A stretch of DNA of 32,492 nucleotides. Origin: Neolecta irregularis DAH-3 (lineage: Eukaryota). Below, piece after piece: positions 26,125 to 32,359 of this stretch. Position numbers and translations under genes: made by a program. Each line of letters begins with the position of its first letter. Positions within the stretch are counted from its first letter, which is position 1. Location of the stretch: assembly GCA_001929475.1 (NCBI GenBank), contig LXFE01002699.1, positions 1 to 32,492 of the forward strand. Direction: 5' to 3'. Under the pieces are notes generated by a model that ran no database searches, was not told where the DNA came from, and saw only the letters and a list, made by a program, of their open reading frames with translations.

Positions 26125-27910
26125 TCACTTCTTCACGTCCCCTATAATGACGACCCAGAGGCCGACTTCATCGTTGAGACTCTTCAAGGGCGTAGCATGG
26201 ATCCAGCGTTGACCATGCCAGATGATCTTTGCGCTAACCGCTTGGCCCAGTCGAAGAGTTCCTGAAAGACCGTCAAGAATCTGTGTAGGCGTGCTTGTTC
26301 GGAGTAATTCCGAGAAACTTGTTCCAGACAATGTAGAATGCTTGAGTTGCAGACTTGGTGATACGAATAGTATAGTCAAAGTAGGATCCTGCCGCAGAAT
26401 AACGTACTAAACATGACAATTTGTAGGAATAGAACAATGACCTTGCGATATGTCGCTTTAAGCTTCATTATGTTCTGATCAAGTGAGTCTTGATGATTGT
26501 CAATGAGATCTTCATTTAAATCCTGCTTCGATATTACTAATCGCTGTCTCTCCTCTGAGCTAGATTTTCTCTTGGATTTAGATTTGTATAAAAAGCAATC
26601 GTCGTGCTCAGTGTAATGTAAACCAGCGTCATGTGCTTCTTCTGAATGTACATTATCTTCGTTAAAAAACAAGAATCGCCGAGATTTATGGAGCATAGCA
26701 GTAACATTAATTTGACCGCCAAGGAAATATTGGATTTTATCGTATTCATCACGTAAAGGGGCGACAAAAAGGAGATTGAAGAACGGAACCCCATCCTCGT
26801 GGATAAGCAAACATTAGAACAAACAAATAATATACCTTTCGATAATTCAACAAGAGTTCCGTATGTTCAACACCATTCATTATCGCTTTTTTCAGACGAG
26901 ATACACAGGAGGGGTTAGTAGCCGGACCCTGAAGAAGCCTGCAATCTAAAAAAGGTAAGGCTACAATCAACAGAAACGGAGACGACCTTGGTTTATAATT
27001 TCATGTCGATCGTAACCAGTAACTTTTAGAAACCCATCACTAACCAAAACAATTCTAAAAAGTTAGAACTGAAGCAGGAAAACGACCTGGGTAAAGAAGT
27101 ATACGGGTTATCAAGATGTGAAGGATTCGTTAGACAAAAACATTCGCATAGACCTTGGACGCTTCGAGAAACGCGTGGTCCATCAAATCCGGTAATCTTT
27201 TCGTAAGATTTTTGAGAGATAAAAGATGCCATTCGATCTCGAAGGTACTCGGGAAAATCAATTTCATATAGTTCTTTTTGGGCTGATGCGCACATTGTAG
27301 CGAGAGGTGAGGGACGAGGATTTGAAGATCGAGGTAAATCAGGGTATTCCTTTGATATTGTATTTGAAAGGGCGTTGAGGTAAACTGTTGTGGTTTGGTG
27401 ATGATGTAGTAAAATCCAGCGATCGAGTAGATGTGCACTAATGTTTGTGTGAAGCGGACATTATATTTTTGGTAAATACCGTTTTCTCAAAGCCAGCCAT
27501 GAACGAAAGACTTTTCTTCCCTGTGAATCTGCAAGCGCTTCGAGAAAAGCTCTTTCCGAGACGAGGTTGAGGGCATCAGATTGTGAATCTTCTTGTATAC
27601 TGAGTTTCGGCATTGATCTTTGGACGTTTCGCAAGATAGATTCGTTGATTTGTTCAAAGAAATCTAACGTGAACCCGGAAGAAGAAGTACTCGGAGTCGG
27701 AGATTCAAAGAGTTTGCCCGAACTGATCATATCCATGATTGATTCCATGTCGCCATCACTTTCAAAGATATTATGGATATGACAATCATTGTGTTTTGAA
27801 TGCGCGAGCTGTACTCGATGAAGCACGTCTCTTGTGGCAGCGTTCATATCCAGGGGTCTGTCCTTGCTACATGATTTATCAGCAATCAAATTTCCAGAAA
27901 ATCCCGACAT
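26125..27910 (-). CDS. RGS-LOV-DUF blue-light photoreceptor (BcLOV4-like architecture); about 5 introns
   Basis: The spliced LOV domain reads GLCECFCLTNPSHLDNP|IVLVSDGFLKVTGYDRHEIINQ|DCRLLQGPATN...ELLLNYRK|DGVPFFNLLFVAPL...FLGGQINVT. Upstream is an RGS-like segment (KVFRSWL..LLDRW..ELYEIDFPEYL). The C-terminus reads RWIHATPL...VGLWVVII. Confidence 0.88.
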
Positions 27911-28506: not shown

Positions 28507-28650
28507 CCTCGAGTTATTCTTCAACGCAGGGACAAAAAACCTCTATTATACTTGCTGACTTGTCGGAACCATNNNNNNNNNNATCCTCGAGTTATTCTTC
28601 AACGCAGGGACAAAAAACCTCTATTATACTTGCTGACTTGTCGGAACCAT
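28507..28650. repeat. 66-bp direct duplication (28507-28572 = 28585-28650) across N gap 28573-28582; probable unmerged contig overlap
   Basis: Identical 66-mers on both sides of a 10-N gap, with a G/T difference immediately before them. Confidence 0.9.
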
Positions 28651-29024: not shown

Positions 29025-30736
29025 CTAATGTCCATTGGTCTGTGCAAGTCGACCTAGAAGGACCGTAAACTGTGAGCCAGCGCCTCCATTGACCATATGG
29101 ACTCCTGTGGTCGCTGTATTAACGATTTGGGTAGGGACAGTAATATCTTCTCCTGGTGGTCCGTGACCAACTTGATACATTTCTCCAAACCCCCAACTCC
29201 ACGCGGCTCCATCTTTAGTAATAGCCACATTATGATGCGTTCCGCAGAAAACCTTTTCAACGGGGGGGATGCCGGGGACTTTGGTAGGCGAGTAAATGTA
29301 TCGTGGTCGTCCGCCGTCATCTTTGTATACTTTCTCTGGAGGTAAATCGGATTTACATAGACCTAGTTGGCAGCCATCTAGACGGCCCCAAGCTAGTACA
29401 TCTCCTGATCGAGTAACCGCTATCGAATGGTGTTCACCGCCTGTAATTCCAACGACATCGTAACCTTTCAGACTATGGACTCTAGTTGGATTTCCAATAA
29501 CCGCTTCATTTTGATTGCCTTGGTTTGCAAGTCCGCATTGACCAAACTGGTTCAATCCCCAAGAAAATACAGTCCCGGTATTATCAATCGCAAAAGAGTG
29601 GTACGATCCAGTTCCAATAACTTTAATATTTTTTAATCCGAATTCGCGCGGGGTAAGTGCATTATTCCGTGTCCGTTCGACTACTTTTCGACCGAGTTGA
29701 CATTGTTGGCCGTTTCCCCATGCGAATACTTTTCCATGTGCAGTAAGCGCGAGGATATGATCGGTTCCACAAACTACTTGCACTACGTGATGTAGCCCGT
29801 GAATCAGGGCCGGGTAGTGCATAATTGCGTAATGAGGACTATACCCCAACAGTCCCTCTGAACACTAAAAACAGTCAGCTGAAAGATGAGGGCGAGAGTT
29901 ACTCTGAATGTACCCCACGTGTACAATTCGCCTTCGTCGGTAATAGCAGCAGTAATACTATCGCCACAAGCCACAGAAACAACATTTACATCCTGTGGTA
30001 ATTCGACAACGACACCAGGAACAGATTCTCTAGGATTGATCGGTTCATTCTCGTCTTCTTCCGAATCGTCGGCGTCAGCATCGCCATTTACAGTGGCTTT
30101 AGGAGGAGGCACTTCCCACCGCGTATCACGACCAAGGGCTCCCTGATCATTAACTCCCCACGTATAAATCTTTCCGTCAAAAGCCAATGCAGCAGAATGC
30201 ATTCCGCCGACAGAAATATCTACTGCGCCCACTTTTTCCAGATCAAGGAATGTATTTAAACGTGGTCTTTTTACTATTTGACAGTTTGAAGCGGGACCGA
30301 GTCCTAGTTCGGCCATGGTTCCTGTGCCAAATACGTAGACGGCAAGTTTCTCTGAAAGGCGGATGCGAGGCGGATTTAATGGAGGTTTTGTAGTTCGTTT
30401 GGCGGCGGTTGTTGCGGTTCTGCCTCGTTTTGCGGGGGGGATTTTTGCCGATGGATCGTCTTGGGAAGGAGATGGATGGTGCGCTGTTTTACTGCGTTTA
30501 GACGAGGGTACTTGCTTGTCGCCTGAAATCTGACGTTTCTTTGACGAGGCTGCAGGGATTTCTGATTCCATTTGTGAAGGGGGGGGTTTATTATGCGGGG
30601 AAACTTTCTTTGTGATTGTTTTCTTTGAGGATGTTTTTGTTTTTGAGGCGGTTGATTTTGATGAGGATGTTGACTTTTGAGAAGAGAGGGTTTCGTTGGT
30701 GGTAGTACGAGACCGACAAGTTCTTTTTTGAGACAT
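29025..30736 (-). CDS. RCC1: RCC1 Ran guanine-nucleotide exchange factor (Pim1/Srm1/Prp20); one intron near 29863-29908
   Basis: Basic N-terminal tail, then RCC1 repeats: VYVFGTGTMAELGLG, GGMHSAAL, TWGVNDQGALGR, YTWGTFR, AWGNGQQCQLGR, SWGLNQFGQCG, GGEHHS. Confidence 0.95.
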
Positions 30737-30879
30737 AATATGCAGGAATAAGATGGAAAAGATGATTATGGCAGGGGGAAGTAAAAATTGGTGGAGGTTG
30801 TTGACACGCGGTTACTGCGCGACTTGCGATTTACACGGTTAGAACAAGCACGTTTATGATACAAAGAAAGCGAAATAGC

Positions 30880-31257
30880 TTACTTTTGGACGAGATGATT
30901 GTAATGACTGGGAGTTTTCATTAGGCACTTTAGACAATCCTGGCGGAAACCCATTATCAGTACATTCTTTATATGAGGCGATTGGTGATCCATATCGACG
31001 TCTAGCATAGCCAAATCAGAAACCTGCCTAAGTACAGAATGCAAATTCGAGGAATACCTGGCTTTGGGAAGATTGTATGCGGAAGTTCATTTGGTCATCA
31101 TTACCAGACATACGTCGTTTCTGGCGGGGGTTAGTAGTGTGGGACGGTAGACTACCTGTCTATAGTCGTCGTGGTCTGTTTCTGCCTTGCGTTTTGTGCC
31201 CTTTCGAGAGAGAAAAGAGTATTGGGGAGGGCCGGTGTGTTGACTTGTGAACGACAT
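30880..31257 (-). CDS. Small uncharacterised 3-exon protein (about 102 aa) with a C-terminal MGFRQDCLKC..PSHYNH motif
   Basis: Exons 31257-31156, 31120-31058 and 31023-30880. Intron 1 (35 nt) has GTAGT, a perfect TACTAAC branch point and CAG; intron 2 (34 nt) runs GTATT...CAG. Splicing gives a continuous frame with KRK/KRR basic clusters and a CxxC-x6-H-x2-H end. Confidence 0.72.
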
Positions 31258-31489
31258 TGGAAGGGGATTTTGCAGGACCTTGATGTTTGTCAAATGTAAA
31301 TAATACGTGAGGGAGTCCATGGTATATTGTGGTTAGGACATGAAGACTATACGAGGAAGAATATAGCAGGATATCAATTTTACATCATAAATATAGACGA
31401 AGAAAAATGGAATAATATTGATTCAAGCTATTTGAGGGTGAAATTTTGGCAGGTGGTGTAGTGAATTTTTCACGATTGACTTCATACCG

Positions 31490-32349
31490 ATGGGGTGGTT
31501 TTGGGCTGAACGCAAGAGACCACAAACAGGAGGGAGTTTGGACAGAGGAGGGAGTTTGGACAGAGGAGGATGTCCCGTTGCAAGGGATCAAGGCTCGGAT
31601 GGATGCCCCGTTGATTCTGCAAGGGATCAAGGGTTGGATGGAGGGACGTGCCCAATGGTCAACGCGCTCAACGGGATGCCTATGGTGTCTCAAACAGCGG
31701 CGGCTGGGCAAAAGACGGCACTGTCTACACGGCGGGAGACGAGCTCTATTCCGCGGGGCGACAAGGAAGGGAAGTGGGAGTACCCGTCGCCGCAGCAGAT
31801 GTACAATGCGCTACTGCGAAAGGGGCACCACGACACGCCTGCCGAGGATGTGAGCAGCATGGTAGACGTGCACAATTTTGTGAACGAGGGGGCGTGGAGG
31901 GAGGTCGTAAAGTGGGAGTCGCGGTATGCACGGTGCGCGAGCGCGAGATCATGGCTGACGGCAGGGAGGGGCAGGCGCCGCGGCTGAGCAGGTTCCAAGG
32001 GCGGCCTGGGGAGACGAGCCCCAAGGCGCGGGTGCTGCACGCGCTGGGGAAGGTGTGCCCGGCCAGGTTTGGGTACGGCGCGGGCGGCGGCAGGCAGTAC
32101 GGCTGACAGCAGGGGGCCGCTTCCGTTTGACCGGCACGACTGGTATGTGCAGCGGGGGGAGCAGGAGGTGCGGTATATTATCGACTTCTATGCGGGGCCA
32201 GCTGCGGGCGGGGAGGCGGTGTTTTATGTGGACGTGCGGCCTGCGCTCGACTCTGCGGGCGCTGTCGCTGCGCGGGTGCGGGCGCTGTGGGCGGCAGACG
32301 CAGGCGCAGACACAGACGCAGGCGCAGGCGCAGACGCAGACGCAGACAG
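31490..32349 (+). CDS. CYC3: Holocytochrome c synthase (cytochrome c heme lyase); 2 introns; 3' end lost in the N gap
   Basis: MGWFW start, CPV/CPV/CPM heme-regulatory motifs, [65 protein letters not shown]. Confidence 0.95.
32294..32349 (+). repeat. Degenerate (GCAGAC/GCAGGC)n hexamer microsatellite encoding an Ala-Asp/Gly tail of Cyc3
   Basis: Hexamer periodicity running into the N gap at 32350-32359. Confidence 0.85.
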
Positions 32350-32359
32350 NNNNNNNNNN

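Follow-up and report, generated by a model that had tools for sequence, protein, structure and literature searches.

The LOV gene and its exon structure

We analysed a stretch of DNA from Neolecta irregularis DAH-3 (GenBank assembly GCA_001929475.1, contig LXFE01002699.1) that comprises positions 1 to 32,492 of the forward strand; this whole stretch of 32,492 nucleotides is called the window below. Our subject is one gene in it, encoded on the minus strand from 27910 to 26125, whose product contains a LOV domain. Sequence comparison indicates that this gene is very probably the Neolecta member, or orthologue, of the fungal RGS-LOV-DUF photoreceptors, also named RGS-LOV-TSD, of the type of BcLOV4 from Botrytis cinerea. 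A preliminary description of the locus, made from the letters alone, had proposed the RGS-LOV-DUF architecture, and it stands: the predicted protein has a divergent RGS-like N-terminal domain, a single LOV domain and a C-terminal DUF, with homology to the family along its full length.

We read the reverse complement, translated it exon by exon and found six exons, which we then joined by script. The product is 1578 nt long and consists of 525 codons with a single terminal stop. All five introns are of the GT..AG type, with lengths of 42, 50, 41, 40 and 35 nt. Exons 2 to 5 each carry a part of the LOV domain, which is therefore absent from any single open reading frame (ORF), and the 525 open codons bear out the earlier claim that splicing by hand restores a complete domain which the ORFs split. 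When the six exons were scanned singly with Pfam, PAS_9 appeared on the 22-residue exon 3 only, and below threshold. A match of exon 5 to MPM1 in Pfam (E=0.083) was rejected as a chance match. The genome had also been described as yeast-like; this holds for the genome, but Neolecta itself is a fruiting-body-forming fungus and not a yeast.

The deposited protein of the contig, P0007, has 507 amino acids and is named 'Phototropin-2 [Neolecta irregularis DAH-3]'; it was the one longer protein that a search with exon 5 returned, and exon 5 is 100% identical in the two. P0007 corresponds to our spliced model with an alternative donor at intron 3 and without the first 21 residues, as it starts at the second Met. 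Because it differs only in that donor and in the start Met, four of our five junctions agree with an independent annotation.

Exon 1 (27480 to 27910) is taken to open with the first in-frame ATG (27910-27908); its product is a disordered N-terminal stretch followed by the initial helices of the RGS-like domain. It is followed by intron 1 (27438 to 27479; 42 nt, GTATTT..TAG), whose junction is the same in P0007. Exon 2 (27105 to 27437) completes the RGS-like domain and begins the LOV domain (CFCLTNP..LDN), and intron 2 (27055 to 27104; 50 nt, GTATAC..TAG) has a CTAAC 11 nt before its AG. Exons 3 and 4, both within the LOV domain, are separated by the intron discussed in the next section. Intron 4 (26796 to 26835; 40 nt, GTATAT..GAG) leads to exon 5 (26442 to 26795), which runs from the end of the LOV domain (DGVPFFN..GGQINVT) through the linker into the C-terminal domain (..ATYRK). 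At intron 5 (26407 to 26441; 35 nt, GTCATT..TAG), the junction ..TYRK|YVIL.. fits the family consensus YxxYLL. Exon 6 (26125 to 26406) encodes the C-terminal DUF/TSD domain, which is PAS-like, and ends in the stop codon tga at 26127-26125. All of these features are on the minus strand.

Splicing of the third intron

The sequence next to the reactive Cys depends on which donor is used at intron 3. In the preliminary model, exon 3 (26987 to 27054, minus strand) encodes IVLVSDGFLKVTGYDRHEIINQ and the first base of an Asp codon, and intron 3 (26946 to 26986; 41 nt, GTCGTC..TAG) is followed by exon 4 (26836 to 26945), which reads CRLLQGP...NYRK. The predicted flavin-adduct Cys is encoded by tgc at 26943-26941, exactly where it had been placed; the translation of 26836-26943 begins CRLLQ. 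In the database version, the end of exon 3 is moved by 9 nt to 26978, so that the donor, GTTTCT, lies at 26977, the intron is 32 nt long, and G-R-L and His are added before the Cys. The donor at 26986 thus yields ..IINQ-D-CRLLQ.. (NQDCRLLQ), a motif that depends on that donor, and the annotated donor at 26977 yields ..IINQGRLHCRLLQ.. (NQGRLHCRLLQ). If intron 3 is retained, the reading runs into a stop.

To compare the two versions, we used a working set of 246 collected proteins and a family alignment of 70 sequences (69 relatives and Neolecta). A search with P0007 had found 14,033 proteins at E<=0.001 in a library of 1.84 billion proteins, most of them sharing only the LOV domain. In the alignment, the G-R-L columns of P0007 are empty in all 69 relatives. 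The spacing from Tyr to Cys is 9 residues in 68 of the 69 and in the model with donor 26986, 8 in the remaining relative, and 12 in P0007. A whole-family profile built from the 69 relatives, with the Neolecta protein left out, scored the 26986 splice at 361.7 bits and the annotated one at 352.1. We also listed all GT..AG pairs between 27054 and 26836 that keep the frame, introduce no stop and remove an intron of 22 to 130 nt. Among these 15 options, the 26986 splice was the best under a LOV-only profile (147.0 bits), ahead of a 38-nt option (140.8) and the annotated splice (138.7).

These results agree with the hand splice, as do two further observations. Solved aureochrome LOV sequences have a three-residue gap facing G-R-L, and the AlphaFold2 model of P0007 has a predicted local distance difference test score (pLDDT) of 74-81 around the insert, between flanking blocks at 93-95.

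The alternative is that the annotated isoform is real, with a 32-nt intron 3 and a three-residue insertion in the helix that bears the Cys, in which case the photochemistry would probably be altered or lost. In its favour, this is the version deposited in the database, its frame is kept without stops, and the 35-nt intron 5 of the same gene means that a 32-nt intron is not absurd, which weighs against the 26986 donor. Neither donor (GTCGTC or GTTTCT) is much like the other four donors of the gene. Arguments from donor sites and branch points were set aside, as five introns are too few to prefer one over the other. A further point against our model is that we infer both the splice and the expression of the gene from sequence. 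The words 'intron', 'RNA-seq' and 'transcriptom' do not occur in the main text of the Neolecta genome paper (PMC5309816), and its gene models are therefore probably not transcript-based; this leaves the annotated isoform, too, without a sign of transcript support. With none of the 69 relatives having residues in the three inserted columns, a gap there in the solved LOV sequences, the dip in pLDDT, and a deficit of 9.6 bits under the whole-family profile and of 8.3 bits under the LOV-only one, we regard that isoform as improbable. The correct mRNA most likely uses the donor at 26986, and the public gene model probably mis-splices 9 nt beside the reactive Cys.

The LOV domain and its active site

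With donor 26986, the LOV domain occupies residues 243-346 of the 525-residue model (26700 to 27142, minus strand; introns 2 to 4 lie inside it). A Pfam scan of P0007 gave one PAS_9 match (E=1.6e-15; 57.7 bits, with the cut-off at 27), a result in keeping with the LOV assignment, and phmmer matched the aureochrome LOV sequence 6i21_A at E=1.3e-24. The motifs NYRK|DG, FFN and GGQ are present, and the residues previously listed as kept (NYRKDG, N and GGQ) can be read directly in the translations of exons 4 and 5. The column of the adduct Cys holds Cys in 68 of the 69 relatives. Neolecta has the commonest family residue at the P0007 columns C261, R262, L264, Q265, R276, N293 and Y294, and likewise at R295, D297, G298, F301, N303, G322 and Q324; at K278, the column has R in 41 relatives and K in 12. 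Among these positions are R262, Q265, N293, N303 and Q324, which we take to be flavin contacts.

Two positions depart from this pattern, the first of which tells against an ordinary flavin site. The residue before the Cys is Asp (His in the annotated splice), where all 69 relatives have Asn; Neolecta is the sole protein of the 70 aligned family members without Asn there. Among 321 matches to the motif xC[RK]..Q in the 246 proteins, 312 have Asn and none has Asp. It is possible, judging from this conservation, that Asp impairs the flavin site. The splice junction falls within the Asp codon, where one base makes the difference between Asp and Asn. The residue after Cys-Arg is Leu instead of Phe, and Leu is found there in 2 of the 69 relatives; in the wider set, 27 of the motif matches contain CRLLQ.

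A paper on the LOV kinase of Xanthomonas citri (Xac-LOV) gives its motif as 'GXNCRFLQ (variant YXDCRFLQG)' and reports canonical LOV photochemistry (PMC3366940). It also describes slow dark recovery, with 5200 s for Xac-LOV and 5650 s cited for Pst-LOV (PMC3366940). Since an Asp-Cys variant is thus known in a photoactive bacterial LOV domain, Asp is compatible with LOV membership. The motif NQDCRLLQ had been called atypical; that is accurate for the Asp, which is unique in the fungal family, but less so for the remainder, given the 27 matches with CRLLQ and the bacterial precedent YxDCRFLQG (PMC3366940).

The standard spacing of the Cys in the Neolecta LOV domain hinges on the predicted splice at 26986. 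By analogy with BcLOV4, we consider it probable that the domain binds flavin and forms a Cys-flavin adduct. Altered photocycle kinetics would be a guess.

The N-terminal and C-terminal domains

The RGS-like helical domain corresponds to residues 61-204 of P0007 (27194 to 27667, minus strand, with intron 1 inside). The preliminary description judged it short and degenerate, and the Pfam results are in line with this, as the RGS family gave no match at E<=1 either on P0007 or on the single exons. That null result counts against a conventional RGS domain. In the family alignment, Pfam RGS matches only 11 of the 70 members at 1e-3; it matches all ten relatives that were scanned singly, including all five found by phmmer with the Neolecta N-terminal segment. 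In the protein P0008 of Saitoella coloradoensis, the match lies at residues 224-322, with E=3e-5 and 24.8 bits, above the cut-off of 23.9, and the Neolecta N-terminal segment aligns with this Pfam-positive stretch.

Structural comparison points in the same direction. In the AlphaFold2 model, the domain (P0007 61-204) is helical, with a pLDDT above 90 in the full model and of 85.0 when folded alone. We folded it separately because, in a VIA alignment of the whole 507-residue model, LOV/PAS domains filled the matches listed. For the N-domain alone, the top 7 rows of the VIA structural alignment were RGS or RGS-homology domains, and so were 35 of the 37 rows listed by Foldseek, where the best E-value was 0.24 and none was at E<=0.001. 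A search of the ESM Atlas with P0007 residues 55-212 gave no usable match by features, and its structure rows had template-modelling (TM) scores of at most 0.39, all below the threshold of the tool. The family profile run against Protein Data Bank sequences is uninformative on the RGS part, with LOV proteins only among the 60 matches listed. Our reading of the alignments and models is that the N-domain would be a real but divergent, shortened RGS-type domain, homologous to RGS. GTPase-activating protein (GAP) activity of this domain is, in our estimate, doubtful.

The DUF/TSD domain spans residues 427-521 of the 525-residue model (26140 to 26459, minus strand, with intron 5 inside). The whole-family profile covers C-terminal residues 385-522 at 85.1 bits, and a DUF-only profile scores 64.2 bits. 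The family strings YxxYLL, ..ILFxSPSL.., RWIHxTPL and WxVVI are kept. The AlphaFold2 model predicts a mixed alpha/beta, PAS-like fold with a pLDDT above 90. In BcLOV4, the C-terminal domain is a temperature sensor, and the domain of the class has been renamed TSD (PMC12667789).

The DUF/TSD profile, at E<=1e-3, also picks up algal phototropins through their LOV domains, and the LOV profile weakly matches some C-terminal domains. This cross-matching agrees with a published conjecture that assigns the DUF to the PAS type (PMC6099885). Because the DUF profile also matches phototropin LOV domains, we counted a protein as DUF-positive only if the match lay outside its LOV matches; under this rule 38 proteins are ambiguous, some of them true members.

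Placement in the RGS-LOV-DUF family

We divided the Neolecta protein into segments and compared each with the 246 proteins. At E<=1e-3, the LOV segment matched all 246, the C-terminal segment 73, the N-terminal segment 5 and the linker none. The whole-family profile match of 361.7 bits falls into two stretches, residues 70-371 (N-domain and LOV) and 385-522 (C-terminal). The closest relative is P0008 of Saitoella coloradoensis, with 45% identity over P0007 residues 76-340 and 27% over 379-501 (E=2e-9). Both Neolecta and Saitoella belong to the Taphrinomycotina, which branch early within the ascomycetes.

In a quick IQ-TREE analysis of the LOV domain alone (102 rows; with just 104 columns, the inner branches are weak), Neolecta is sister to Saitoella, with a support of 87 in the SH-like approximate likelihood ratio test (SH-aLRT). 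Both lie within a clade of 58 tips (support 96), which includes each of the 48 rows where a C-terminal DUF match is clear, and the phylogeny thus groups the gene with the RGS-LOV family, as had been anticipated.

The class was described as the 'dikarya LOV class' with 66 candidates (PMC6099885), and has since been renamed RGS-LOV-TSD, or 'RLT', with 69 members listed (PMC12667789). Two proteins from non-Dikarya fungi resemble the family: P0025 of Sorochytrium milnesiophthora and P0041 of Irineochytrium annulatum. The first adjoins Neolecta and Saitoella in the LOV tree (support 77) and has a C-terminal PAS-like stretch with a ..LTPL..WVAVI.. end, which is below the DUF profile threshold of E<=1e-3. 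The two genera belong to the Blastocladiomycota and Chytridiomycota, respectively. The 'dikarya' label may be too narrow.

The class was reportedly first named in a 2016 survey of LOV photoreceptors. Our literature searches found no paper on the Neolecta protein or on the RGS-LOV family in Taphrinomycotina; they did not cover supplementary member lists or the 2016 survey, and a prior listing is possible. Neolecta is absent from the available text of both BcLOV4 papers (PMC6099885 and PMC12667789), and Taphrin* and Saitoella are absent from that of PMC12667789. A profile search with Neolecta and Saitoella gave no further named relative in Taphrinomycotina; it depends on shared words and is no evidence of absence.

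The linker and the membrane-binding proposal

In BcLOV4, a polybasic amphipathic helix called AH1 (residues 403-416, with FFK and FKK motifs) follows J-alpha and binds anionic lipids in the light (PMC6099885; PMC10410727). The RGS domain inhibits AH1 in the dark, and AH1 is stated to be 'largely conserved' in the RGS-LOV-DUF class (PMC6099885). The preliminary description had suggested such an element in Neolecta, pointing to two basic and hydrophobic segments.

The linker of the Neolecta protein is about 81 residues long (79-81), whereas the 69 relatives have 122 at the median and no fewer than 80. The first segment, LHKSRRFLFF (26664 to 26693, minus strand), comes directly after the LOV core, at the J-alpha position, and its SRxxLFF is common to Saitoella. 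The 11-mer VTAMLHKSRRF has a hydrophobic moment (muH) of 0.50 and a net charge of +3. Further along is a polybasic patch, FLYKSKSKRKSS (26559 to 26594, minus strand), with 5 K/R in one 7-residue window, no predicted helix and a pLDDT below 50. Only 178 of 5000 shuffles of the linker contain a window with 5 of 7 K/R, and MAFFT sets FLYKSKSKRKSS opposite the ..SFFKAWRK.. (FFK..WRK) segment of Helotiales.

A number of measurements weigh against an amphipathic, AH1-like helix. The net charge of the linker is -3. The muH of FLYKSKSKRKSS is 0.24, compared with 0.52-0.59 in the Helotiales relatives. The best basic 11-mer in the linker has a muH of 0.39, where 47 of the 69 relatives have at least 0.5, and the value of 0.50 for VTAMLHKSRRF is reached with two LOV residues included. 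An amphipathic scan was at the shuffled expectation, as the maximal muH of the linker (0.45) lies below the shuffle mean of 0.52 +/- 0.09. Finally, the AlphaFold2 model shows residues 346-400 of the linker as disordered (pLDDT <50), with no helix at the equivalent of AH1.

Part of the earlier suggestion thus survives: the polybasic patch is present at the aligned position, but its low muH and the AlphaFold2 model predict no helix; such predictions do not decide whether lipids are bound. On sequence and model, a basic, membrane-competent patch is plausible, and an amphipathic helix is not supported. Light-driven membrane binding, which we consider by analogy with BcLOV4, has in our view a little less than an even chance.

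A proposed light-gated receptor and its alternatives

Taken as a whole, the best explanation of these results is probably a receptor of the BcLOV4 type. By analogy with that protein, the LOV domain would bind flavin, and blue light would lead to a Cys-flavin adduct. The J-alpha/linker region would then be freed from inhibition by the RGS-like domain, the exposed basic segments would bind anionic membrane lipids, and the RGS-like domain would thereby be placed near G-alpha subunits (PMC6099885). The C-terminal domain may tune the response, possibly with temperature, as in BcLOV4.

A different explanation is that the protein genuinely belongs to the family but has lost its light-gated binding to membranes. 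It would be light-blind or bind flavin weakly, and would perhaps act as a temperature-responsive or constitutive scaffold through its PAS-like domains. The residue before the Cys, unique among the 69 relatives, would fit this, as would the unmatched Pfam RGS and the missing prediction of an amphipathic helix. The temperature sensing of the BcLOV4 C-terminal domain (PMC12667789) and the knock-out of the Magnaporthe member, which had no pronounced phenotype (PMC6099885), are also in its favour. However, all other conserved positions of the LOV core are kept, including the Cys, the Arg, the Gln, both Asn and the terminal Gln, and the YxDC variant occurs in a photoactive bacterial LOV domain (PMC3366940). 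The polybasic patch at the AH1 position is non-random, and the six exons are all open. We consider loss of light gating unlikely and prefer the BcLOV4-type receptor.

The surrounding sequence

The neighbours of the LOV gene in the window are unrelated genes of a housekeeping type: a dihydroxy-acid dehydratase C-terminal domain, a CMD family member, a nucleoside transporter, CwfJ and a RAI16-like gene. Directly upstream of the LOV gene is a gene with RCC1 repeats (29028 to 30811, minus strand). It is split over two overlapping ORFs (WD40_RLD, E=1.5e-69 and 3.7e-33), and this split implies a short intron near 29804-29864. There is no tRNA within the window. The G+C content rises from 0.46 to 0.515 toward the right end of the contig (30001-32000) and is about 0.42 elsewhere; the GC skew reaches 0.30 at 31001-32000 and is close to 0 elsewhere.

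A gap of 10 Ns at 28573-28582 is flanked by an exact duplicate of 66 nt (28507-28572 and 28585-28650). The duplicate has the appearance of an artefact introduced when the draft was scaffolded. Further runs of 10 Ns lie at 191-200 and 32350-32359.

These features bear on the possibility that the gene is a decaying pseudogene, or that an error of assembly or sequencing lies behind the unusual residue that precedes the Cys. The draft contig contains three N runs, one of them flanked by the 66-nt duplicate, and the Asp codon lies across a junction where one base separates Asp from Asn. Nevertheless, the gene itself contains no N, the 525 codons are open over six exons with intact GT..AG borders, and conservation is strong along the whole length. 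We regard decay or error as highly improbable, and continue with an intact gene for a BcLOV4-type receptor.

Significance

The gene is already annotated and is in that sense ordinary. What the analysis contributes is a divergent addition to a known photoreceptor class, a probable correction of a gene model and one unusual active-site residue. Retained light signalling in the Neolecta lineage is not new, and none of these results overturns current views.

The practical consequence concerns the database entry. With a probable mis-splice and the name 'Phototropin-2', expression or comparison would begin from the wrong sequence. For the family, the range now includes two named members, from Neolecta and Saitoella. 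The Asp variant is a natural test of the effect that the residue before the Cys has on flavin binding and the photocycle. In Neolecta, which has been studied with a view to how fruiting bodies arose (PMC5309816), the protein is a candidate for a second blue-light input besides White collar, possibly linked to G proteins.

A bolder proposal, to which we give a small chance of being right, is that the protein is a naturally minimal RGS-LOV-TSD receptor of 525 amino acids, with one of the shortest linkers. Its Asp-Cys-Arg-Leu, with Asp-Cys as in slow-cycling bacterial LOV kinases, may give a markedly different and possibly long-lived lit state, and it may reach the membrane through the unstructured, hydrophobic and polybasic FLY-KSKSKRK patch, not through an amphipathic helix. 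If this were true, the family would have a second mode of light-gated lipid binding, and optogenetics a compact substitute for BcLOV4. Its use as an optogenetic scaffold is something we infer only.

Comparison with known systems

The plant and algal phototropins to which the deposited name refers share 36-38% identity in the LOV domain over 25-29% of the Neolecta query (P0010 and P0012). A phototropin carries a pair of LOV domains together with a Ser/Thr kinase, which Pfam identifies in P0010 and P0012 as PF00069/PF07714. We rejected a phototropin identity for the Neolecta protein, in which Pfam at E<=1 finds PAS_9 once and no kinase family; with one LOV domain and no kinase, the name 'Phototropin-2' is therefore a misnomer. 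White collar-1 of ascomycetes combines a LOV domain with further PAS domains and a GATA zinc finger. This identity was likewise rejected, as neither GATA nor any other Pfam family besides PAS_9 was found at E<=1, and the flanking domains match RGS-LOV-DUF.

Xac-LOV and Pst-LOV (Pseudomonas syringae), known here from a motif description, have Asp directly before the adduct Cys, as Neolecta does (PMC3366940). They differ in being bacterial, with a LOV-HK-RR architecture, and are not close in sequence. The available text does not state that Asp is the cause of the slow recovery (PMC3366940).

BcLOV4 (BcRGS1) has the same order of parts as the Neolecta protein: a disordered N-terminus, an RGS-type domain, a single LOV domain with its Cys, a basic J-alpha/linker region and a PAS-like C-terminus (PMC6099885; PMC12667789). 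BcLOV4 lies outside the set of proteins compared, and the Helotiales proteins P0018 (Hymenoscyphus) and P0028 (Diplocarpon), with 31-34% identity, served as stand-ins. Compared with this type, the Neolecta protein is shorter and fails Pfam RGS, it has Asp-Cys-Arg-Leu instead of Asn-Cys-Arg-Phe, and its polybasic patch is non-helical, in place of the amphipathic helix predicted for the others.

The Saitoella relative P0008 (hypothetical protein YB2330_006369, 704 amino acids) differs from the Neolecta protein in several respects. It has the canonical Asn-Cys-Arg-Phe and reaches the Pfam RGS cut-off, its N-terminus is longer by about 200 residues, and its 140-residue linker contains a strongly amphipathic basic segment with a muH of 0.65. 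In common with Neolecta, it has IIN before the Cys motif, GPATNP, NYRKDGVPFFNLLF and SRxxLFF.

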